The translations under genes were made by a program, and so were the position numbers. Shown in pieces: positions 17,649-28,868 of a stretch of 64,000 nucleotides of DNA. The stretch lies in NCBI GenBank assembly GCA_036493755.1, contig DASXPG010000106.1, positions 11,241 through 75,240 on the forward strand, in the 5' to 3' direction. How positions within the stretch are numbered: the first letter of the stretch is position 1; every line of letters starts with the position of its first letter. The notes below the pieces were generated by a model. That model did no database searches and was not told the DNA's origin. It worked only from the letters and a program-made list of their open reading frames with translations. Source of the stretch: Gemmatimonadales bacterium (GTDB lineage: Bacteria > Gemmatimonadota > Gemmatimonadetes > Gemmatimonadales > JACORV01).

Positions 17649-19505
17649 TCAGATGAGCCCCGTGGGACCGACTTCGGCGGCGGGCGAGACGCCCCCGCGC
17701 AGTTTCTCGAGGATCGTCGCGGTGTTGATCAAGGCCGCATGGGACAGTCCCTGCGGAAAGTTGCCCATCTGCGCTCCCGTCAGCGGGTCGATTTCCTCGG
17801 CGAGCAGCCCCATCGCATTGGAGCGGCGCAGCAGATTCTTGAAGAGCCGCTCGGCTTCCGCGAGCTCGCCGATCATCGCGAGGTTCTGGATCACCCAGAA
17901 ACTGCAGAAGATGAACGCCCCTTCGTCGCCGGTGAGGCCATCCTCGGAACGATAACGGTAGATCAGCTCCTCGACCGGCGTGGCCAGCTCCTTGCGCACG
18001 GCGTCGAGCGTCCCGCGCACCCGCGGGTCGCCGTGGGGAAGGAAACGGACCTTGGGAACGACCAGCAGCGCCGCGTCGAGCGCCGGATGATCGTACGACT
18101 GGATGAAGGTGTTGCGCGCGGTATCGAAACCTCTCTCGAGGATTTCGGCACGCAGCTTCTCGGCTTCCCGCCGCCAGGCGCCGGTGTCGCCCGGGAGCGA
18201 GTGGCGCTCGGCGAGCGCGGCGCCGTGGTCGAGGGTGACCCACGCCATGATCTTGCTGAAGACGTGATGCCGCGGCGCGACGCGCGGCTCCCAGATCGAG
18301 AAATCGGGCTCGCTCCAGTGCCGGCTGGTCCAATCGATCAGCCCATGCAGGGAAATCCAGGTGCCTTCGCTGACCGTGCGGCTCGTGCCCCACTCGGCGA
18401 CGGTCGCGAGCAGCTCGCCGTAGACGTCCATCTGGAATTGATCGACGGCCCCGTTGCCGATGCGCACCGGGCCCAGACCCCGCCAGCCGCGAAGGTGCTC
18501 GAGGATCTTCTCCTCCGGCGGACGACGCGCGTCGGTGGCGTACATGATCTGGATGTAACGTCCATCCTCGCGGCGGCAGACCCGCTTGAGAAAACCCATG
18601 AACGCTTCGGTCTCCTCGGTATAGCCGAGTCCTTCGAAGGCCTGGAGCACGAAAGCGGCGTCCCGCAGCCAGACGTAGCGGTAGTCCCAGGTGCGGCCAC
18701 CCTGGGTCGATTCGGGAAGCGAGGTCGTCGGCGCGGCGACGATCGCGCCGGTCGGCTCGCAGCAGAGCAGCTTGAGGGCCAGCACGCTGCGCTCGACCTC
18801 GGCACGATAGGGTCCGTTGTACTGCATCTTCGCCGACCAGGCGTCCCAGTAGCGCACGGTATCGTCCAGCGTCGCGTCGCAATCGTGCGACGCAAGCGGA
18901 CGTACTTCGTCGTCGTCGAAGGTCATCACGAACCAGGCCTGCGCGCCCTCTTCGAGGGTCAGCGTGCCGCTCGCGCCGGATTCACTCAGCGACCAATCGA
19001 TGCCGTCCGATGCGCAGAGGGTGACGACGTCGTCGAAACGGTCCGAGGCCATGAACCCGGCACGACGACCGGTGACGCGCGTGGGCGTCGCGGCGTATTC
19101 GAGTCGTGGCTCCCAGATGACCTGCGCCGGAACCGATCCGCGGACCGCGCGCAGCCGGCGCATGATCCGTCCGAAGCGGCCGCGTCGCGGCCCGACCGGC
19201 ATGAAATCGAGCAGCTCGAGGGCACCGACGCCTTCCTGCGGACGAAACGTGGTGGAAAGCACGTTGGTGCCGGGGAGGTAGCGTTGCTCGGAGATCGACG
19301 CGACACTCGGCCCGATCAACCAGCGCCCGCCGCGCTCTTCGTCGAGCAATGCGGCGAAGGTGGTGGGGGAATCAAAACGCGGCAGACAACAGAAATCGAT
19401 GGTGCCGTCGCACGCGACCAGCGCCGCCGTGTTGAGATCACCAATGACGCCGTGCTCGTGAATCGCGCGATAGCTCACGGCGTACCGCGGCCAGCGGGAC
19501 CGCAC
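17649..19505 (-). CDS. Glycoside hydrolase family 15 (glucoamylase-like; probable trehalase given context)
   Basis: HGVIGDLNTAALVACDGTIDFCCLPRFDSPTTFAALLD, WDYRYVWLRDAAF and FWVIQNL are GH15 hallmarks. It lies downstream of otsA-otsB on the same strand. Confidence 0.9.
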   Translation of the reverse strand: MRSRWPRYAVSYRAIHEHGVIGDLNTAALVACDGTIDFCCLPRFDSPTTFAALLDEERGGRWLIGPSVASISEQRYLPGTNVLSTTFRPQEGVGALELLDFMPVGPRRGRFGRIMRRLRAVRGSVPAQVIWEPRLEYAATPTRVTGRRAGFMASDRFDDVVTLCASDGIDWSLSESGASGTLTLEEGAQAWFVMTFDDDEVRPLASHDCDATLDDTVRYWDAWSAKMQYNGPYRAEVERSVLALKLLCCEPTGAIVAAPTTSLPESTQGGRTWDYRYVWLRDAAFVLQAFEGLGYTEETEAFMGFLKRVCRREDGRYIQIMYATDARRPPEEKILEHLRGWRGLGPVRIGNGAVDQFQMDVYGELLATVAEWGTSRTVSEGTWISLHGLIDWTSRHWSEPDFSIWEPRVAPRHHVFSKIMAWVTLDHGAALAERHSLPGDTGAWRREAEKLRAEILERGFDTARNTFIQSYDHPALDAALLVVPKVRFLPHGDPRVRGTLDAVRKELATPVEELIYRYRSEDGLTGDEGAFIFCSFWVIQNLAMIGELAEAERLFKNLLRRSNAMGLLAEEIDPLTGAQMGNFPQGLSHAALINTATILEKLRGGVSPAAEVGPTGLI

Positions 19506-19560
19506 CTCGTTACGTCCATGTCCTTGTCTACCCAGATGAACGGCGGGAGAGCCCGGGGCC

Positions 19561-20307
19561 TCACCGGCGCTGCTCGCGGCCGGCGCCGGCCAGCCAGCGC
19601 CGCACCGCCGTGACGTCGGGCAGCCGCCACCGTGCTGCGCTCGCGCCCGCGCCGACCCTGATCGTATGGCCGCCCAGCTCGTTCACCACCGCGAAGGCGT
19701 CTTCGTCGGTGCGGTCGTCACCGAGATACACGGGAAGCCGGCCGCGAAATGGCGATTCCCGCAGGAAGGCCCGTACCGCCGATCCCTTGTTGGCGCCCGC
19801 GGGCCGAAGCTCCGCCACGCGGTGACCGCGCTGCAGCCGATGGCTGTGGCCCAGCCGCGCGAGCTCGGCCCGGAGCAGGCGGTGCACGTAACCCGCAAGC
19901 CGTGGCACGCGGCGATAGTGCAGCGCGAGCGATTGACCCTTGTCCTCGAGCAGCAGGCGGGGATGGTTCTCGACGCGGGTCCGCAGACGTCCCCGGGCAT
20001 CATCGAGGAGTGCAGCGTCCGATGCGCACACCGTGTTGCCACCGGGCGCCAGGCGTCGCTCGGCGCCATGCTGGCCCGCCATCGGCAGGCGCAGCGCCGG
20101 GAAGAGGCGGTCGAGGTCGGCAAGCGAACGGCCGCTCACCAGCGCGACCGCGCCGCCGGTCGCGCGCATCAGTACGTCGAGCACGTGGAGCAATGCCCGG
20201 TCGGCCTTCACGCCATGCGGCACGGGTTTCAGCCGCAGCAGCGTGCCATCGACATCGATCATGTACGCCCAGGCCGGGCTCGCCGCGGGAGGCTGACCTC
20301 GTGTCAC
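19561..20307 (-). CDS. otsB: Trehalose-6-phosphate phosphatase
   Basis: HAD motifs IDVDGTL, VSGRS, KG and GDDRTDEDAF. Start assigned to GTG 20307, which overlaps the otsA TGA (GTGA). Confidence 0.85.
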   Translation of the reverse strand: MTRGQPPAASPAWAYMIDVDGTLLRLKPVPHGVKADRALLHVLDVLMRATGGAVALVSGRSLADLDRLFPALRLPMAGQHGAERRLAPGGNTVCASDAALLDDARGRLRTRVENHPRLLLEDKGQSLALHYRRVPRLAGYVHRLLRAELARLGHSHRLQRGHRVAELRPAGANKGSAVRAFLRESPFRGRLPVYLGDDRTDEDAFAVVNELGGHTIRVGAGASAARWRLPDVTAVRRWLAGAGREQRR

Positions 20308-22565
20308 GCGCGGCCGCCGCTGCGCGCCGCGCCGGAGCCCGACAGCCGCTCGGATACGACGCTGCGACCGAACAGGCGTCGGCGGCTTCGCATCTCCGCG
20401 GCATCGATGAGCATGCGTCCCGCCCAGCGGTAGACGTTGAATTCCTGGATCAGCGCCCGCATCAGGCGCATGCGGGCCCGCTGTTCGCCCTCCGGCATGG
20501 TCAGGGCCATGTACAGGCCGGTCGCGCACTGGTCGGTATCGTACGGGTTGACGATGATCGCCTCCGGAAGCTCCCGCGCCGCGCCGGTGAACTGGCTGAG
20601 CACCAGCACGCCGCGTTCGTCGTCCCGGGCGGCCACGAACTCCTTCGCCACCAGGTTCATGCCGTCGTGCAGACTACTGACGAAGCACAGGTCCGCTGCC
20701 CGGTAGTACTCGTACACATTTTCCGGCTCGTGGTGGGCGGCGGTGAACATGATCGGAGGATGTGCGGCCGAGGCGAATCGCCCGTTGATCCGCTCCACCA
20801 GCGCACGCACCCGGGCTTCGTAGTGTTGGTACTCCTCGATCCGGCTGCGGGTCGGTGCGCCAATCTGAATGAAAGTGAAACGGCCGACCAGCTCGGGATG
20901 AAGCTCCAGCAGCCGCTCGACCGCGCGCAGCCGTTCCTCGATTCCCTTGGTATAGTCGAGACGATCGATGCCGGCGCCGATCGCATGAGTCGACGGCAAT
21001 CCATGACGGGCCCGCACCCGCAGGCGGCAGGCCTCCACGGGCTCGGCGATCAGCGCCGGCGGAAGCGGCCAGCCGATGGAAATCGGGTAGCGCTTGACCG
21101 CGGTCGGCGATCCTCGGTACGAGACGGTGAACGTCTCCCGGTCCACCCGCGCCTCCAGCGACCGATCGACCGTGTCCACGAAGTTGTTGCGGTGGAATTG
21201 GGTATGAAACCCGAGGATGCTGCTGCCCAGCAGGCCATCGAGCAGCTCCTCGCGCCAAGGGCAGATACCGAAGGCCTCGGGGTTTGGCCAGGGAATGTGC
21301 CAGAAGGTCACGATGGTGGCGTCGGGCAGCGCCTCGCGGATCATTCGGGGCGCCAGCGCCAGATGATAGTCCTGGACCAGGACGATGGGGTCGGACGAGG
21401 AGCTCTCCTCCACTACCGCGTCCGCAAAGCGCTGGTTGACGCGGCGATACTGCTCCCAGTCGGCGCCGCGAAAAATCGGTCGCACATGGGCGATGTGGCA
21501 CAGCGGCCAGAGCCCCTCGTTCGCAAAACCGAAGTAGTAGCCCGACTCCTCCTCGCTGGTCAGCCAGATCCGCCGAATGCGATAGGCCGGCTGCTCCGGC
21601 GGAATTCCGACCCGGTCGTTCGCGTCGACGACCTCACGGTCGGCGGACCCGCTGCCGTGGGCGATCCAGGTTCCCGAGCAGGCGCGCATGATCGGTTCCA
21701 GCGCCGTCACCAGGCCGCTGGCGGGACGCTGGATCACGATCTCGGTGCCGCGTCGGACGTGGATGTAGGGCTCGCGATTCGACAGTACGATGATTTCCTG
21801 GCCACGCAGCTCACGATGCAGCAGGTCCCGCAGCGTGTCCGGGCCCCACGTGATGTAGTCGTGGTGTCGCTCGCGATGCTCCGCGTCGAGGTCGCGAATC
21901 AGCGCCCGCAGATCGTCGGCGATGGGACGGAACTCGGGCAGCTCCGGTGCCGCGACCGGCCGCAGTAATCCTTCTCCTCGCAGCAGCGCGCGCACCCCCT
22001 GCTCCCAGCCACGCCAGCTCAGCTGCGCGATGACGACGGTGATGAGCGAGACCGTGACCGCGAGCCCGACAAAGAAATAAAACAGGTATCGCCGGGTGTC
22101 CCGGCTCCGCCGGACCACGAAGCTCATGTCGTGGACCAGCACCAGCCGGCCGGCCGGCGCGCTATCGGTCGCCAGGGGTTTTACCGATACCAGCAGCGGG
22201 CCGTCGGGGCTTGCGAGCACGTGACCATCGGGGCCGGGATAGCGATCCAGCGAATCACACGCCAGCGCCGCGGGCATGGTGGCGGTCGCGACCGGCGCGG
22301 CCGCGGGCGAGGAGCAGTACCCCACGGCGTACAACCGTTCGTCCTGGATGAGCCGCGCGAAGTACTGCAGCATGCGGCCGCGATTGGCGCCGCGGGTCAG
22401 GTCTTGAAGCGGTTCCTCCGCCGAAACGGCGATGAGGTTTGCCCGGATATCGAGGTCGCGGGTGAACCATTGAACGGTCAGGCGATTGACCAGGGGCTGC
22501 ACCGCATATGCCAGTGCGCCAAGCGCCAGGAGCAACGGAATGATGAATCGCAGTGATAGCCGCAT
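20304..22565 (-). CDS. otsA: Trehalose-6-phosphate synthase (GT20) with ~260-aa N-terminal two-TM sensor-like extension
   Basis: The C-terminal ~480 aa is GT20 ([33 protein letters not shown]). The N-terminus has TM1 ([16 protein letters not shown]), a ~135-aa loop and TM2 ([21 protein letters not shown]). Confidence 0.9.
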
Positions 22566-22677
22566 CCAGCCTCAAGAGTATCGCGGACGAGGGTGCACAT
22601 GTTGCCGGGACCGATATACGTTGATGAATGGGCAATACACTGCATGACGAGTTCCGTGCCGTGACGGTCGTGCGCGA

Positions 22678-23073
22678 ATGAGCCAGCCCGATCTTCCCGA
22701 TGACGTCCGGCGGCTGATCCAGACCAGCATCCCGACGCTCGAGGCCCTGGAGATCGTGCTGCTGCTCGCCCGCGATCCCGGCCGGGAGTGGCACGCGCAG
22801 GCGATTCCGCAACTGCTGGTCCCGACGCCGGTCAGCGAAGCGGCGGTGTCCCAGTACCTCGCCGTTCTGGCGGAACAGGGCATCGTCTCCGTCCGTGACG
22901 ATCAGCGGTTCGTGTATGAGCCGCGCACTCCGGAAATCACCCGTGCCATCGAGGGCCTGATCGTCGCCTACCACCAGCGCCCCGTAACCCTCATCCGCAC
23001 GGTCTACGCCAGCGCCGAGATGCGAACCATCCAATCGTTCGCCAGCGCCTTCCGGCTCAGGAGGGACGTCTAG
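22678..23073 (+). CDS. Hypothetical protein, possible winged-helix (MarR-like) fold
   Basis: 131 aa. The segment LEALEIVLLLARDPGREWHAQAIPQLL...VSQYLAVLAEQGIVSV resembles a wHTH. Its stop overlaps the next start (TAGTG). Confidence 0.6.
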   Translation: MSQPDLPDDVRRLIQTSIPTLEALEIVLLLARDPGREWHAQAIPQLLVPTPVSEAAVSQYLAVLAEQGIVSVRDDQRFVYEPRTPEITRAIEGLIVAYHQRPVTLIRTVYASAEMRTIQSFASAFRLRRDV

Positions 23074-23342
23074 TGGAAACGGTGAAGGTTGCCCTCTACG
23101 TCCTGGCGACGATCACCTGCCTCGCCTGCACGGCGCTGCTGATCCGCCAGTACCTCGACACCCGGGCGCGCCTGTTGCTCTGGAGCGCGCTCTGCTTCGT
23201 GGGATTGTCGCTGAACAACCTGCTGCTCGTCGCCGATCTGGTGGTGTTTCCGGCGGTGGACCTGCGGCTCTACCGGCACCTGGCGTCGCTGGCGGGCATG
23301 CTCTGTCTCCTCTACGGTTTCATCTGGGAGGCCGAGCGATGA
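23073..23342 (+). CDS. Small 3-TM membrane protein (89 aa), paralog of the next gene
   Basis: Three hydrophobic segments. Shares the pattern R-x4-R-x2-L...F-x2-L-x-L-N-x2-L with the 23339 product. Possibly the small paired membrane-protein family annotated as a DUF; needs an HMM search. Confidence 0.6.
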   Translation: METVKVALYVLATITCLACTALLIRQYLDTRARLLLWSALCFVGLSLNNLLLVADLVVFPAVDLRLYRHLASLAGMLCLLYGFIWEAER

Positions 23343-23617
23343 GGCTCTGGTTCATCGATTTTCTGGGTGGCGCCGTGACCGTGACGTACCTCGTCGCCGG
23401 GCTCTTCTTCCTGCGTTTCTGGCGCCGCTCGCGGGATTCCCTCTTCCTCGGCTTCGGCTGCGCCTTTCTCCTCATGACGTTGAACCAGGTCCTTGCCTCC
23501 TGGCTCGGCTCGGACAACGAGCGTACCGGCTACACCTACGTCCTGCGGATCCTCGGTTTTCTGTGGATCCTCTACGCCATCGTTCGCAAGAACGTGGGGG
23601 CGCGGCCGCGGGCCTGA
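23339..23617 (+). CDS. Small 3-TM membrane protein (92 aa), paralog of the previous gene
   Basis: Three hydrophobic segments. ATGA overlap with the previous gene. Confidence 0.6.
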   Translation: MRLWFIDFLGGAVTVTYLVAGLFFLRFWRRSRDSLFLGFGCAFLLMTLNQVLASWLGSDNERTGYTYVLRILGFLWILYAIVRKNVGARPRA

Positions 23618-23632
23618 TTCATCCGCGGGCGC

Positions 23633-25321
23633 TCACCACGGGGCGACGTCGAGCATCACCCGTTCCAGCGCCGCCGCCGTGGTCAGCAGGATCAGCTTGT
23701 CGCCCGCCTGCATCCGCACGTCGGGCCGCGGCGCTATCATCCGTTCATCCCGCATTATCGCCAGGATCTCGATCTCGTCGTCGATCTTGCCGCGCTCCGG
23801 ACCGAAGCCACGCCCGACCCAGGCGCTCGTTTCGCGCAACGACCCGACCAGCAACTGCCGATCGTTGGACAACTCGGTCGGGACCCCGGCGCGCAGCCGT
23901 TCGAGCAACGCTTCCCCGGCGGGCTCGAGCGGCCGGACCTGGCGCTGCTGCTCGAGAATGCGCAGCGCGATCTCGAGATGCTCGGTGTGGTGCGCGGGAG
24001 AATCAGCCCGCCGCGGCACCTGCTCCTGGTAGAGGCTCTTGTAACGCAGATGCTGCGAGAGGCGGACCTGCACGATGTAGCTGATCGTCACCGCCAGCGC
24101 GGCGGCGACCAGGAGGGTATACCCCCCGGTCATTTCCGTGACCATCATCAGCGTGGCCATCGGGACCCGCGCGGCACCGGCGAATACCGCGGCCATGCCC
24201 ACGATCGCAAAGGGCGCTGCCGTCTTGTGGATCACCTGGGCGAAAAACGCCCCGAGCATGGTGCCGATGTACAGACTGGGAGCGAACACGCCCCCGGAGC
24301 CCCCCGAAGAAATCGTCAGGCTCATCGCGATGGTCTTGGCGAATACCAGCAACAACAGCGTCAGCGTGAGAAGCTGCCCGTCGATGGCGCGCTGCATCCA
24401 GCCGTATCCACCGCCGATCACCGGCGGCAGTGCCAGCGCGATGACACCGGTCAGCAGGGCACCGATCGCCGGCTTGACGGCCGGCGGAATCCGGAGCTTG
24501 TGGAAGAGATCGCGGGTGTAGTAGAAGGCCAGCGGCAGCAGCACCGCGACCAGTCCGGAGGCCAGGCCGAGGGCCGTGAACCAGACGTAGTCGATGCTCT
24601 CGGGATTGTTGATCGCCGGAATGACGAACAGCGGCCGGAAGCCGGTGAAGACGCCGTTGACAGCATAGGCGACCACCGAAGCCAGCATGGTGTACAGCAG
24701 CGCGCCGCTCTCGAACTCCATGTCGGCGTAGAGAACCTCGATCGAAAACAGCGCCGTCCCGATGGGCGAGCGGAAAATCGCCGCGAGGCCGGCCGACATG
24801 CCGATGAGCAGCAGCAGCCGCCGATCCTCTGGACTGCGGTGCGTGATGCCCGCGTACCACGAGCCGATACCGGCGGCAACCAGCGCCGTCGGACCCTCGC
24901 GGCCCGCCGAGCCACCGGAGCCGATGGTGAGTCCCGACGCCAGCATCTTGAGCGGCGGCACGCGCGCCCGCAGCGCGCCGTCCGCCCGGTGGAAGGCCCG
25001 CACCGCCGTATCGGTACCGTGGCCCTCCGCCTCGGGCGCCAGCCAGGTGATGAGGAGACCGCAGAAGAGGCCACCGACCGCGGCGACCACCGGCACGAGC
25101 CACAGCCCGAACCGGCCGATGACCTCCTGCGGCGAGCCTCCCTCGTTGACGAGGCCCGGCGGCTGGTAGCCCGCCAGCCTGCCCAGGAAAAGCGACTGAG
25201 CCACATTCAGAACCAGCGTGAAGAGCTGGGCCGACGCCGCGCCGCCGATACCGAGGAGGAGGGAATCCAGCAGCAGGCGCCGCTGCCGCCGGGCCACCGA
25301 TTCAACGGGGGCCGCGGTCAC
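23633..25321 (-). CDS. ClC-family chloride channel/antiporter with C-terminal TrkA-C (RCK_C)-like domain
   Basis: GREGPTALVAAGIGSW, GGSGGVFAPSLYIG and GYTLLV selectivity-filter-like motifs. The C-terminal tail reads ILAIMRDERMIAPRPDVRMQAGDKLILL. Its GTG start overlaps the ligD stop. Confidence 0.9.
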   Translation of the reverse strand: MTAAPVESVARRQRRLLLDSLLLGIGGAASAQLFTLVLNVAQSLFLGRLAGYQPPGLVNEGGSPQEVIGRFGLWLVPVVAAVGGLFCGLLITWLAPEAEGHGTDTAVRAFHRADGALRARVPPLKMLASGLTIGSGGSAGREGPTALVAAGIGSWYAGITHRSPEDRRLLLLIGMSAGLAAIFRSPIGTALFSIEVLYADMEFESGALLYTMLASVVAYAVNGVFTGFRPLFVIPAINNPESIDYVWFTALGLASGLVAVLLPLAFYYTRDLFHKLRIPPAVKPAIGALLTGVIALALPPVIGGGYGWMQRAIDGQLLTLTLLLLVFAKTIAMSLTISSGGSGGVFAPSLYIGTMLGAFFAQVIHKTAAPFAIVGMAAVFAGAARVPMATLMMVTEMTGGYTLLVAAALAVTISYIVQVRLSQHLRYKSLYQEQVPRRADSPAHHTEHLEIALRILEQQRQVRPLEPAGEALLERLRAGVPTELSNDRQLLVGSLRETSAWVGRGFGPERGKIDDEIEILAIMRDERMIAPRPDVRMQAGDKLILLTTAAALERVMLDVAPW

Positions 25322-27960
25322 GATGCGCCCCCGCTGCGCGCGTGTTTGCGTCGGCCGAAACGCGCCGCGAGCGCCTCGAGCGCGCCGGGCAAGTCGGGCT
25401 TCAAGTCGAGGACCGGCACCAGTGGATCGGTCTTCAGCTTCTTCATGCGCGCCGGCACGCTTCGGATGGTGAAATCAAGCATATCGAGTTTCGCATTGAC
25501 TTCCTTCCACAGGAGTGGCGTCGAGACCATCGCACCCTTCACCGGACGTACGCTGAAGGGAGCGGCGAGCAGCTGACCCTGCCCGTTCTGCATGTAGTCT
25601 ACGTAGACCTTTCCTTCGCGTTTGCGAATCTGCCGGATCACGGTGGTGATCTTCGGCAGATCGGCGACGATCGCGCGGGCCAGCAACCCGCCCAGATCGC
25701 GGGTCTGCTCGTAGGTGCAGAGTCGCCCCATCGGTATCAGCACGTGAAGACCGGAGGATCCGCTGGTCTTCACGAAGGCGGGAAGGCCGAGCTCGTCGCA
25801 GAGCTCCTTGCAGGCCAGCGCCGTGGTGACGACGTCGGTGAAGGGCGCACCCTTGGGATCGAGATCGAGGATGCACCAGTCCGGCGTCTCCAGGGTCGCC
25901 ACCCGGCTGCCCCAGATATGGAGCGGGATGGCGGCCATATTGGCGATGTAGAGCAGCGCCGCCTCGTCGCCGACGACGAAATAGTTGAGATCGCGCTGCG
26001 AATCATCGCTCCAGACGCTCACCGTCTTCACGAACTCACGGGCGTACCCGGGCGCGTCCTTCTGATAGAATGACTTCCCCTCGATCCCGTCCGGATACCG
26101 GGTGAGGACAAGACACCGATCGCGCAGATAGGGGAGAATGAAAGGCGAGATCGCGCGATAGTAGTCGATCAGATCGCCCTTGGTGTAGCCCTCTTCCTTC
26201 CAGAAAATCTTCTTGAGGTTGGAAAAGTTGAATGCCGGCTTTGCCTTTGGAGCGGCAATTCGGGATGCCGGAGCGCGGGACGCGGCCTGCGGGATGGGGA
26301 GCCCGGAGCCGGTCGATTGGTTGTCTTGCGCTACTAAATCAGCGTCCGATGATCCGGGCTCCTCGTCCTGCAGGCCGCGTCCCGCGTACACGCATTCCTC
26401 AGGCTTCTTGTCATCACGAAACCGGAGAAATACCGGCTGCCTGAGCAGGCCATCGTTGGTACGCTCCTTGAACCGCACCTCGGCCACCATCGTCGGATCG
26501 ACCCACATCTCGTCGGCGCCTTTGGGAATCGGGCCGCTGCAAGGCGGCGTTTTCCGCCGATGCTTCTCCAGCTCCCCCGACACCTGGTCGAGCTGCTTGC
26601 CGCTGAAGCCGCTGCCGGCCCGTCCCATGTAGACCAGCGTGCCATCCACGTACTGTCCCAGGTGCAGCGCGCCGAATCCCGCGCGCGATCCCCTGGGCTG
26701 TGACGCGCCGACGACGACAAAATCGTCGGCCTTGTCGGCGCGGATCTTGATCCAGTCCCCCGAACGGCGCATGCGATAGACCGAGTCCTGCTTCTTCGCC
26801 ATGATCCCTTCGAGTCCCAGCCGCTCGACCTGCGCGAAGAGCGCCTCGCCCTCTTTCTCGAAGTGATCCACGAAGCGGAAGGGACCGGCCGGCGGCAGAA
26901 TCGTCTGAAGAATCATCTTGCGGGCGAGCAGCGGCACGTCGCGCAGATCGTAGCCCTGCGCGGCGATCAGATCGAAGCAATAGAAGGTGGCGGGATTCTC
27001 GACCGCGGCCTTGGCGATGTCGCGGGGGCGCGAATTGCGGGCCCGCTGCTGAAGTCTCTGGAAGCTGGGCATGCCGGCGGCATCGTGGCAGGTCACCTCG
27101 CCGTCGATGATCAATCCCTCGTAAGGCATCGCCGCCAGCGCCCTGGCCAGCTCGGGAAAACTCGCCGTCAGATCGAGGCCGTTGCGGCTCCAGAGCCTGG
27201 GCGTGTTGTTCTCGTTCGATGCGATGATCCGCCAGCCATCGATCTTCAGCTCGAAGATCCAGCCGGCGCGCGAGAACGCCTCGTCCCGGGTCTCGGCGAG
27301 CATCGGCTTCACGCTCGCGGCGCTCAGCTGCGCCGGCTTGGCGCGCACTTCCTGGAGCAGTTTGACGAGCTTCGCCGGCCGGTCGGTGCCCTTCTCGAGG
27401 TCGTCGACCGTCAGCCCCGAGAGCACCGACGAGTCGGGAAAGTCGTCGCCGTCCTCGGAAACCTGGCCATCGCGCTCCTTGATGAGGAGCCATTCCTTCT
27501 CGGCGCGCTTGATCTTCACCAGCGTCCAGCGGCCCTTGAGCTTGTAGCCCCGGAGATCGAAAAGAAGTTTTCCCTCGGCCAGTCCTTCGCGCCAATCGCC
27601 AATCGGCACCCATTCGCCGCGATCCCAGACGATGACCTGCCCCGCCCCGTAATTGCCCTCGGGGATGACCCCCTCGAAGTCGCCGTACTCCAGAGGATGG
27701 TCCTCGACCGAGACCGCGAGACGCTTGTCGGCGGGATTCTTCGACGGACCCTTGGGAACGGCCCAGGATCGGAGCGTCCCACCCATCTGGAGGCGGAGGT
27801 CCCAGTGCAGGCGGGTGGCCGCGTGCTTGTGGACGACGAACAGCCGCCCCTCTGCCGGGGTAGGAGCCAGCACACCCGAGGGCTCGGGCGTCCGCTCGGC
27901 GGTTCGCTTGGCCCGGTACGCGCTCAGGCCGTCGTTGTCAGGCTTTCGAGTTGCGGCCAT
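25318..27960 (-). CDS. ligD: Multidomain DNA ligase D (phosphoesterase - ATP-dependent ligase - polymerase/primase)
   Basis: N-terminal PE domain (FVVHKHAATRLHWDLRLQMGGTLRSWAVPKGPS), ligase adenylation motif ELKIDGWR, and C-terminal Pol domain (LVLTRYPDGIEGKSFYQKDAP, SGSSGLHVLIP). Confidence 0.95.
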   Translation of the reverse strand: MAATRKPDNDGLSAYRAKRTAERTPEPSGVLAPTPAEGRLFVVHKHAATRLHWDLRLQMGGTLRSWAVPKGPSKNPADKRLAVSVEDHPLEYGDFEGVIPEGNYGAGQVIVWDRGEWVPIGDWREGLAEGKLLFDLRGYKLKGRWTLVKIKRAEKEWLLIKERDGQVSEDGDDFPDSSVLSGLTVDDLEKGTDRPAKLVKLLQEVRAKPAQLSAASVKPMLAETRDEAFSRAGWIFELKIDGWRIIASNENNTPRLWSRNGLDLTASFPELARALAAMPYEGLIIDGEVTCHDAAGMPSFQRLQQRARNSRPRDIAKAAVENPATFYCFDLIAAQGYDLRDVPLLARKMILQTILPPAGPFRFVDHFEKEGEALFAQVERLGLEGIMAKKQDSVYRMRRSGDWIKIRADKADDFVVVGASQPRGSRAGFGALHLGQYVDGTLVYMGRAGSGFSGKQLDQVSGELEKHRRKTPPCSGPIPKGADEMWVDPTMVAEVRFKERTNDGLLRQPVFLRFRDDKKPEECVYAGRGLQDEEPGSSDADLVAQDNQSTGSGLPIPQAASRAPASRIAAPKAKPAFNFSNLKKIFWKEEGYTKGDLIDYYRAISPFILPYLRDRCLVLTRYPDGIEGKSFYQKDAPGYAREFVKTVSVWSDDSQRDLNYFVVGDEAALLYIANMAAIPLHIWGSRVATLETPDWCILDLDPKGAPFTDVVTTALACKELCDELGLPAFVKTSGSSGLHVLIPMGRLCTYEQTRDLGGLLARAIVADLPKITTVIRQIRKREGKVYVDYMQNGQGQLLAAPFSVRPVKGAMVSTPLLWKEVNAKLDMLDFTIRSVPARMKKLKTDPLVPVLDLKPDLPGALEALAARFGRRKHARSGGAS

Positions 27961-27989
27961 AGCTGTAAGACCTTATCATAGCGGACCTT

Positions 27990-28868
27990 ATGAGCCCTCG
28001 TCCAATCTCCGGCGCGACCCTTTCCTTCGGCCTCGTCTCGGTCCCGGTCGAGATGTACCCGACCTACGAGTCGAGCGCTACGGTCGCATTCCACCAGATC
28101 AATCCGAAAACCGGCGCACGGGTGAAGCAGGAGCTGGTCGATTCCAAGACCGGCGAGAAGATCGAGCGCGCCGACATCGTTAAAGGCTACGAATTCTCGA
28201 AGGGCCAGTACGTCACGTTCACCAAGGACGAGATGAAGGCCCTCGAGGCAAAGAAAACCGAATCGATCGACATCATCGAGTTCGTCCCCGCCGACAAGGT
28301 CGATCGCCTCTTCTTCGATCGCGCCTATTTTCTGGGCGTCGGCAAAGGCGGCGACCGCGCCTACATCCTCCTCGCCGAGGCCCTCAAGAAGACCAAGCTC
28401 GTGGGCATCGGGCAGTACAACGCCCGCGGAAAATCCTACCTCGTGATGCTCCGCCCGATGGAAAACGGCCTCGTTCTGGAGCAGCTCCACTATGCCGACG
28501 AAGTCCGGGATATTGCCGACATTCCGAAGCCCGAAGGCCATGCCAGTCCGCGTGAGCTGGAGTTGGCGATTCAGCTCATCGACCAGCGGAAAGCGGCAGA
28601 GTTCAAGCCCAAGCAGTTCAAGGACGAAGTCCAGGAGCGGGTCCGCGAGCAAATCGAAAAGAAAGTGGCGGGAGAGGAAATCACCGCCGAGCCCGCGGCC
28701 GAGCCGGAGACGCAGGTGCTCGATCTGATGGAGGCACTCAAGCGGTCGATCGGCGGAAAGAGTCCCGCCGGCAAGAAAGCCGCGGCGGAAAAGCCGGCGC
28801 TGAAGGCGGAGCGCGGCAAGGCCGCCCCGAAGCACACGACGAAGGTCAAACGGCGCGCCAGCGCCTGA
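27990..28868 (+). CDS. ku: Ku protein (non-homologous end joining)
   Basis: ATLSFGLVSVPVEMYP, IVKGYEFSKGQYVTFTKDE and a basic Lys/Ala-rich C-terminal tail. Divergent from ligD. Confidence 0.95.
   Translation: MSPRPISGATLSFGLVSVPVEMYPTYESSATVAFHQINPKTGARVKQELVDSKTGEKIERADIVKGYEFSKGQYVTFTKDEMKALEAKKTESIDIIEFVPADKVDRLFFDRAYFLGVGKGGDRAYILLAEALKKTKLVGIGQYNARGKSYLVMLRPMENGLVLEQLHYADEVRDIADIPKPEGHASPRELELAIQLIDQRKAAEFKPKQFKDEVQERVREQIEKKVAGEEITAEPAAEPETQVLDLMEALKRSIGGKSPAGKKAAAEKPALKAERGKAAPKHTTKVKRRASA

Follow-up and report, generated by a model that had tools for sequence, protein, structure and literature searches.

What would a soluble winged-helix protein (A) and two small membrane proteins (B and C), encoded in one tightly packed unit, do together? 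The question is raised by three overlapping genes in a 64,000-nucleotide stretch of contig DASXPG010000106.1 of a Gemmatimonadales bacterium (the whole stretch is hereafter called the window). The unit lies between the trehalose gene otsA and a gene for a ClC channel/antiporter. An earlier note on this DNA had described it as a tightly coupled three-gene cassette. The order of the genes proved invariant in 80 of 80 loci, and the short junctions were kept across relatives, as this description implies. The three genes are a real, conserved operon; we tentatively propose that it works as a single module with coupled translation, and that its products assemble into a small complex at the membrane. 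With the same reserve, we suggest that B and C might act as a sensor or anchor of the membrane state, with A as their cytoplasmic winged helix-turn-helix (wHTH) partner in the control of osmotic or ionic stress.

The three genes are real and coupled. They are coding, because in each of them substitutions relative to five relatives ranked codon position 3 above position 1 and position 1 above position 2. The coding signature that the earlier note had left to comparative alignment was thus found in every one of the open reading frames (ORFs). The GC content at third codon positions was 0.86-0.90, in a window of 67% GC. Overlaps of 1 and 4 nucleotides, as the note had read them, were seen in the sequence. 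The stop codon of A (TAG, 23071-23073) shares one nucleotide with the start codon of B (GTG, 23073-23075) in the string TAGTG at 23071-23075. The start codon of C (ATG, 23339-23341) and the stop codon of B (TGA, 23340-23342) overlap in the string ATGA at 23339-23342. The GTG start of B is backed by an N-terminal 'MET' conserved in the orthologs and by the AGGAGG element 8 nt upstream. The cassette is divergent from otsA, which agrees with the arrangement given in the earlier note. The positions are collected in Table 1.

The conservation of the triad was analyzed with one genome per species. Relatives were present in 339 genomes (species), and 80 loci were fetched and searched with local hidden Markov models (HMMs) for A and for B-type and C-type proteins. 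In all 80 loci, which come from about 10 phyla, A, B and C were found in the same order and on one strand. Three further contigs were reached from the A side, and each of the three carries the pair of membrane proteins. The triad was seen in Gammaproteobacteria, Chloroflexota and other Gemmatimonadota. Hundreds of homologs of the membrane ORFs were found. Co-occurrence and gene order, which the note had named as a check on the cassette, are therefore settled for the fetched loci.

The junctions between the genes were analyzed at the nucleotide level. Across the loci, the gaps are mostly between -4 and +6 nt. A Shine-Dalgarno-like element lies at -18 to -4 of the B start in 65 of 82 loci, and such an element lies upstream of C in 51 of the 82. 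In the last six codons of A, purine-rich codons make up 84% of the Lys/Arg codons, as compared with 28% elsewhere in the gene. The C-terminal K/R-K/R-D/E residues of A and the W-E-A/S-E residues of B thus double as the Shine-Dalgarno element of the next gene over the 82 loci. Conservation of the amino acids at the C-terminal ends of A and B therefore partly reflects selection at the RNA level. In particular, part of the 'conserved basic tail' of A is an RNA constraint, because its codons form the Shine-Dalgarno element of B in 65 of 82 loci. The proposal that this tail is a membrane- or DNA-binding surface was weakened accordingly, as the tail largely encodes the Shine-Dalgarno element. The short junctions and the elements embedded in the upstream genes point to coupled, probably near-equimolar synthesis of A, B and C. 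A 7-bp hairpin (CGATGAG...TTCATCG, 23337-23357, forward strand) spans the ATGA of the B stop and C start and buries the ATG of C. It could gate the translational coupling; the number of such hairpins in the scan was no higher than in shuffled sequence.

Table 1. Positions in the window of the cassette genes, their translation signals and the flanking genes.
Feature	Position	Strand	Description
Gene A	22678..23073	+	131-aa cytoplasmic winged-helix protein, predicted ArsR/SmtB-like fold with an extra conserved C-terminal helix (residues 102-127)
Gene B	23073..23342	+	GTG start; 89-aa DUF5985 protein, first-position subfamily, 3 predicted transmembrane helices
Gene C	23339..23617	+	92-aa DUF5985 protein, second-position subfamily, 3 predicted transmembrane helices
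Intergenic region between the divergent otsA and gene A starts	22566..22677		112 bp; presumed promoter region
Shine-Dalgarno AGGAGG for gene B	23059..23064	+	Within the terminal Arg codons of A (CTC AGG AGG GAC); 8 nt before GTG
Shine-Dalgarno-like GGAGG for gene C	23327..23331	+	Within the conserved C-terminal W-E-A codons of B (TGG GAG GCC); 7 nt before ATG
otsA (GT20) with ~250-aa N-terminal membrane extension	20304..22565	-	Divergent from gene A; Pfam
otsB	~19561-20529		Beyond otsA, trehalose block; Pfam
GH15 trehalase-like gene	17649-19505		Beyond otsB, trehalose block; Pfam
ClC channel/antiporter with TrkA_C domain	23633..25321	-	Convergent; 15 nt past the gene C stop; Pfam

HMM searches of all three proteins gave clear matches to DUF5985 for B and C; the matches of A, to ArsR/SmtB families, were all below threshold. 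The score of A was 18.7 bits against Pfam HTH_5 (cut-off 22) and 21.9 bits against NCBIfam NF033788 (cut-off 55), and neither Pfam nor NCBIfam contains a curated model that matches A above threshold. The weak sequence similarity of A to ArsR/SmtB proteins is confined to residues 33-100. In a profile search of the Protein Data Bank (PDB), the profile of the A family, which has more than 2600 members, reached HlyU and NolR with E-values of about 1e-3 (1e-3 for HlyU). The AlphaFold2 (AF2) model of A, calculated with 91 homologs, showed a winged helix with two extra C-terminal helices (predicted local distance difference test score, pLDDT, 90.4; predicted template modelling score 0.82). The order of its elements, alpha1-alpha2-alpha3-alphaR-beta1-beta2-alpha5, is that of the ArsR/SmtB winged helix. 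The best Foldseek matches of the model were SmtB, SrnR, HlyU, CadC and SqrR (probability ~1.0, target TM-score 0.54-0.65, E-value ~1e-2). In the model, then, A is a winged-helix protein of the ArsR/SmtB fold. The earlier note had described a soluble 131-aa protein with a MarR-like helix-turn-helix (HTH) segment. The winged-helix HTH stands, but its assignment to MarR does not, since ArsR/SmtB proteins are closer in both the profile and the Foldseek comparisons. The MarR_2 score was 13 bits against a cut-off of 27, and MarR structures could be aligned only with a root-mean-square deviation above 10 Å.

In comparison with the ArsR/SmtB repressors (SmtB, CadC, HlyU, SqrR/BigR and NolR), A shares the core wHTH fold, the order of secondary structure and the position as first gene. 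It differs from them in falling below the curated cut-offs, in having no Cys, metal or thiol site, and in having an extra, near-invariant C-terminal helix. The protein in the window contains no Cys and two His, and the known sensing sites of ArsR proteins (the alpha3N Cys motif, the alpha5 His/Asp/Glu metal site and the redox Cys pair) are absent. The invariant columns of the family hold residues of the non-ligand type. Information content is highest in the helix at residues 101-131, which is family-specific and near invariant, and the homologs at the upstream position carry an invariant RPVTLIR..Y...F-A-x-AF motif. Conservation is weak in the putative recognition helix and the wing, which, in contrast to those of the ArsR/SmtB repressors, are not basic; they have no net positive charge, and the median net charge of the family is -2.

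The 112-bp region between otsA and A showed no sigma-70 consensus and no perfect inverted repeat with arms of at least 7 bp. No operator motif or palindrome upstream of A was common to 75 non-redundant loci. The promoter of the alphaproteobacterial general-stress factor sigma-EcfG (GGAAC-N15-18-CGTT) was likewise sought and occurred in 0 loci. DNA binding by A is therefore uncertain, because there is no shared operator, no palindrome in the window and a neutral-to-acidic HTH surface. A few loci have strong palindromes upstream of A. One of them is the perfect 22-bp palindrome GAACAATTTTTCAAAATTGTTC, about 49 nt upstream of gene A in a locus of Chloroflexota (L006). It is a plausible candidate operator in that lineage, with no equivalent in other lineages or in the window.

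Two unusual relatives of A were also observed. A stand-alone A-like paralog (L059, 5123-5500, reverse strand) keeps 'SFSDAFRIR' but not 'RPVTLIR'. Its gene belongs to an otsA / Na+/H+ exchanger operon, in which it directly follows otsA and precedes a gene for an 819-aa Na+/H+ exchanger-Usp-EIIA protein, with no adjacent DUF5985 gene. This paralog suggests that A-type proteins may regulate osmotic genes without B and C. A metagenomic protein of 236 aa (P0290) has an HTH segment of the Crp/Fnr type and an A-like 'FGDAFRLR' motif, and reads through into a B-type DUF5985 protein. The protein may be an artefact; otherwise it is a variant that joins another kind of HTH to the same C-terminal motif.

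B and C matched Pfam DUF5985 (PF19447; typical length about 85-95 aa) with scores of 98.5 bits (E-value 2.8e-28) and 78.4 bits (E-value 5.3e-22), respectively, both far in excess of its gathering threshold of 27.3 bits. No match for B or C was found in NCBIfam, PADLOC or the PDB sequences. The earlier note had called the two proteins clearly paralogous. Pairwise BLASTP of B against C was marginal (E-value 0.013, 28% identity over 39 aa), but alignment of the family profiles with hhalign gave an E-value of 2.2e-5, so that the relationship stands on the profiles and is not clear from the pair of sequences. DUF5985 proteins at the first position are 64-71% identical across phyla, as compared with 19-25% identity to those at the second position. 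Judged by these identities, B and C go back to an ancient duplication, and the two orthologous subfamilies each keep to their own position. The B subfamily is marked by 'RLLLWSALCFVGLxxNN' and 'LLYGFIWE', and the C subfamily by 'FLRFWRxTRDRLF', 'LNQ' and a C-terminal 'KN'. Pfam holds a single family; here there are two position-specific subfamilies, always paired behind a wHTH gene. Clustering of DUF5985 at 50% identity gave 856 clusters, essentially all of stand-alone proteins; among the listed top 150 of the 856 representatives, nearly all stand alone and are about 64-95 aa long. An exhaustive HMM search for Rosetta-stone fusions, which would join DUF5985 to a kinase or another domain, found none; the longer matches inspected (P0163, P0312, P0315 and P0262) are frameshift or read-through artefacts.

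Each membrane protein was expected to have three transmembrane (TM) helices, and this was borne out. The AF2 model of B alone showed three helices (residues 2-30, 33-58 and 65-88) at moderate confidence (pLDDT 73.5), which is expected for a subunit modelled singly. The fold is generic, and every Foldseek match of the model had an E-value above 1. The Lys/Arg charge bias is about +1.8 for B and about +4.3 for C. Both proteins are thus predicted to be N-out/C-in, C strongly so, with minimal periplasmic exposure. Conservation peaks in cytoplasmic loop 1, in TM2 (with NN or NQ in mid-membrane) and at the cytoplasmic and C-terminal ends. C has a conserved Arg in TM3, and the alignments of B and C show no conserved His or Cys for cofactors. 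A parallel pairing of B and C is likely, because the charge bias orients both subunits in the same way, and a 6-TM heterodimer is the most likely arrangement on these predictions. The antiparallel, dual-topology pairing was considered and is unsupported by this bias.

Other paired small membrane proteins (EbrAB, Fluc/CrcB, SemiSWEET and SdhCD/FrdCD) resemble B and C in that two adjacent paralogous genes are expected to give dimers. Subunits of SemiSWEET and SdhC/D have three TM helices, as B and C do, and those of the small multidrug resistance (SMR) and Fluc proteins have four. SMR and Fluc pairs are antiparallel, whereas B and C are predicted to be parallel. SemiSWEET forms the triple-helix bundle of the PQ-loop proteins, and no such structure was among the Foldseek matches of B. 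In contrast to SdhCD/FrdCD, B and C have no heme-ligand His. Transporter-like identities for B and C (SemiSWEET, SMR, Fluc and NuoK/Mrp) gave no match in Pfam, no match in the PDB sequences and no significant match with Foldseek.

The genes around the cassette were analyzed by clustering the neighbouring ORFs at about 90 cassettes, with Pfam checks and distance controls. The commonest neighbour, present at 31 loci, is a REC-PAS-HWE kinase. At 19 loci, a neighbouring gene encodes a giant protein (about 2000 aa) that combines 11 HAMP repeats, GAF, HisKA and HATPase domains and three REC domains. Other neighbours are OmpR-type regulators (10 loci), ClC (7), OtsA (7) and extracytoplasmic function sigma factors (6), and also Na+/H+ exchangers (with Usp domains), BON, DUF2382 and HSP20 proteins and a weak S6PP-like match. 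The neighbourhood is enriched in two-component genes: the density of REC and kinase genes is 1.64 per 10 kb in the first 1 kb from the cassette and 0.24-0.44 per 10 kb past 2.5 kb, which makes them 4-7 times denser there than at 2.5-10 kb; 17 poly-HAMP genes lie within 2.5 kb and one lies beyond. The decay of both with distance supports a real linkage to kinases. ClC genes beside the cassette also recur with distance decay, in four to five phyla, among them Gemmatimonadota, Nitrospirota, Alphaproteobacteria and Acidobacteriota. OtsA is found within 7.5 kb in six other loci, mostly of Gemmatimonadota.

Within the window, the cassette separates a trehalose block (GH15, otsB and a membrane-anchored otsA) from the ClC gene, which is followed by LigD and Ku. 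The region 17649-28868 as a whole looks like an island of the dormancy or desiccation type, with GH15, otsB and otsA on one side and ClC-TrkA_C, a three-domain LigD of 880 aa and Ku on the other. The OtsA protein has its GT20 domain at residues 257-720 and two hydrophobic segments in the N-terminal extension, and looks like a membrane-anchored trehalose-6-phosphate synthase. Similar long forms of OtsA (738-750 aa) adjoin the cassette in other Gemmatimonadota (L002 and L008). In another locus (L091, 13883-14384, reverse strand), a gene about 6 kb from the cassette encodes a 915-aa product with Na_H_Exchanger and Glyco_transf_20 (OtsA) domains, a fusion of transporter and trehalose synthase; the same cassette is flanked by two ClC genes. 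On a Gemmatimonadota-like contig (L001, 1025-7433), the cassette is embedded with overlapping junctions: genes for a GMC oxidoreductase, a gluconate 2-dehydrogenase subunit 3 and a GFO/IDH/MocA protein flank it at one end, and a multicopper oxidase gene flanks it at the other. This redox context was found at that single locus.

The giant kinases resemble AskA of Myxococcus xanthus. Their N-termini match the AskA crystal structures (9TRK/9TRJ) with E-values of about 1e-110. Poly-HAMP hybrid kinases of this type adjoin about 20% of the cassettes (about 20 of about 90, within 2.5 kb), together with the REC-PAS-HWE kinase. Relative to the cassette, the pair occurs in four layouts, either on its strand (upstream or downstream of it) or on the opposite one (divergent or convergent), and in six or seven phyla. 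Five-gene clusters of the kinase pair and the cassette on one strand are found in Novosphingobium aromaticivorans DSM 12444 and Azospirillum lipoferum 4B, where the cassette genes are SARO_RS18350/18355/18360 (on pNL2) and AZOLI_RS22375/22370/22365, respectively. AskA, AskB and AskC of M. xanthus mediate the response to ambruticin and to glycerol, and they bind the regulator FruA and the wHTH regulator MrpC (PMC7643160). Next after the clear AskA homologs beside the cassettes comes a second kinase that contains REC, just as askC comes after askB (PMC7643160), and the Ask system is linked to osmolyte and glycerol responses. Arrays of poly-HAMP domains typically have no input domain, according to a structural paper of 2026 (PMC13446029).

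The likeness to the Ask system has clear limits. The cassette proteins are not kinases, most Ask-like kinases have no cassette, and the 64-kb window contains no homolog of the poly-HAMP or the REC-PAS-HWE kinase. On 170 plasmids or chromids (111 of Rhizobium), the AskA-like kinase and the second kinase with REC make up a conserved core of two genes, usually without the cassette; DUF5985 is present on only 4 of these 170 plasmid records. The pair lies by itself in D. deserti and also in M. loti and A. brasilense; in the latter two species, the gene that follows the pair encodes a small glycine-zipper protein or surface lipoprotein (L095, L096, L097 and the plasmid collection). A cassette right downstream of askC in M. 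xanthus DK1622 was considered and rejected, as the second gene past askC, MXAN_6732, encodes a class II aldolase. Because of the window, the plasmids, the three species and M. xanthus, the cassette is not a universal partner of these kinases. The association is, by gene order, one-sided, and the cassette is an accessory module that is sometimes recruited beside them.

On the basis of these observations, the mechanism that we tentatively favour can be stated in steps. B and C would pair in parallel into a 6-TM heterodimer, which might sense the intramembrane or the ionic-osmotic state and signal through its conserved cytoplasmic face to A, so that A would be in contact with the B/C pair. The availability of A, or its binding to DNA, would then alter the expression of stress genes. 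In the genome of the window, the adjacent trehalose genes (otsA-otsB-GH15) and the ClC gene would be candidate targets; in other lineages, the module might be wired beside stress-signalling kinases. The invariance of A, the stronger conservation of its C-terminal helix than of its HTH and the absence of sensing residues would favour coupling between A and B/C at the protein level. A role in osmotic or ionic stress is suggested by the recurrent neighbours (kinases, ClC, Na+/H+ exchangers, OtsA and HSP20/Usp/BON proteins), and the A-like paralog in the otsA / Na+/H+ exchanger operon of L059 is in line with it.

Several observations weigh against this mechanism. The linkage to OtsA is mostly synteny within one phylum, Gemmatimonadota, and genes for signalling or ion transport are absent from the surroundings of many cassettes. 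The HTH surface of A is neutral to acidic, the 75 loci have no operator in common ahead of A, and a palindrome is lacking there in the window. The conservation of the basic tail of A is in part the Shine-Dalgarno constraint described above and not a protein surface. The generic fold of B leaves room for a channel or a transporter.

This last point leads to the main rival, which we regard as somewhat less likely. A would be an ordinary ArsR-type autorepressor that senses a cytoplasmic cue, and B/C would be a regulated heterodimeric channel, transporter or membrane-protective effector, with no need for a regulatory contact between A and B/C. An ArsR-like protein encoded by the first gene of the operon is the usual layout of efflux operons controlled by ArsR, MarR or PadR proteins. 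The polar NN/NQ residues in mid-TM2 of both membrane proteins and the Arg in TM3 of C could line a pore or a binding site, the ClC and Na+/H+ exchanger neighbours fit ion handling, and the few strong palindromes, such as that of L006, would be its operators. Local repressors, however, are normally swapped or lost over such distances, whereas A is invariant in 80 of 80 loci. In addition, A lacks Cys and the known metal and thiol sites, and the positions that resemble ligand sites are not the conserved ones. No operator is shared, A is often internal to an operon without a promoter gap, and neither sequence nor fold relates B/C to SMR, Fluc, SemiSWEET or any transporter. A purely structural role is considerably less probable. 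In that case A would not bind DNA; B/C would form a membrane anchor like the 3+3-TM SdhCD/FrdCD, which hold a soluble partner, and A would be its cytoplasmic subunit or would help to assemble it. The poorly conserved, non-basic HTH surface beside a near-invariant C-terminal helix, the strict co-occurrence and coupling, and the L001 cassette among oxidoreductases and a multicopper oxidase would all be explained. Such a complex is difficult to reconcile with the lack of conserved His or Cys for cofactors in B and C, with an oxidoreductase context at one locus only, and with the A-like paralog that exists without B and C.

It is also conceivable, but improbable, that the cassette is the dedicated membrane input (B/C) and/or the wHTH output (A) of AskA/AskB-like soluble poly-HAMP hybrid kinases, which have no known sensor domain. 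The varied layouts with the kinase pair across phyla, the match of the kinase N-termini to 9TRK/9TRJ, the five-gene clusters of N. aromaticivorans and A. lipoferum, the lack of an input domain in such arrays (PMC13446029) and the binding of wHTH regulators such as MrpC by Ask kinases (PMC7643160) are in line with this idea. It is opposed by the absence of such a kinase from the window and from the neighbourhood of about 75-80% of the cassettes, and also by the plasmid counts, the lone kinase pairs and the aldolase gene past askC. The remaining idea, which is very improbable and largely refuted, is a mobile toxin/holin-like or anti-phage element in which B/C would disrupt the membrane and A would be a wHTH antitoxin or repressor. 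Small 3-TM N-out/C-in proteins do resemble class I holins in outline, and C has a weak, sub-threshold match to Phage_holin_2 (17.3 bits, cut-off 32). Nevertheless, the cassette had no match in 50,697 phage records, and B and C none in PADLOC. Plasmid copies of DUF5985 are four, all on non-mobilizable megaplasmids, and the distribution of the cassette is broad and chromosomal, without a mobile-element context.

As for known systems, the arrangement that we prefer, a membrane pair with a cytoplasmic regulator, recalls the PspB/PspC-PspA-PspF system of envelope stress. In that system, small integral membrane proteins that are barely exposed to the periplasm share their locus with a regulatory partner in the cytoplasm, and the regulator is an AAA+ enhancer-binding protein controlled via PspA. 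The likeness would be a functional analogy without homology. DUF5985 is already catalogued (PF19447), and orthologs are automatically annotated by NCBI as 'DUF5985 family protein'. We found no paper that mentions the family or the locus tags tested. The triad, its two DUF5985 subfamilies, the partner family A and the associations with kinases and ClC appear to be undescribed.

A bolder form of our proposal, to which we attach a low probability, is that A-B-C is an intramembrane sensing device. The DUF5985 heterodimer would read the membrane or ionic-osmotic state and pass it to a non-canonical ArsR-fold adaptor, and beside poly-HAMP kinases the device would supply the missing input or a transcriptional output. 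If true, this would bear on how group III-like poly-HAMP kinases sense, in bacteria and in fungi. The placement beside AskA-like kinases offers a new experimental handle on a kinase class without a known input, and N. aromaticivorans DSM 12444 and A. lipoferum 4B are cultured hosts with the full five-gene cluster. For annotation, gene A merits a family model of its own, and DUF5985 could be split into two subfamilies. A three-gene unit that is intact across about 10 phyla is very likely a working machine, one whose soluble component has no family model, and the triad is a candidate for the sensing of envelope or osmotic stress in soil bacteria.

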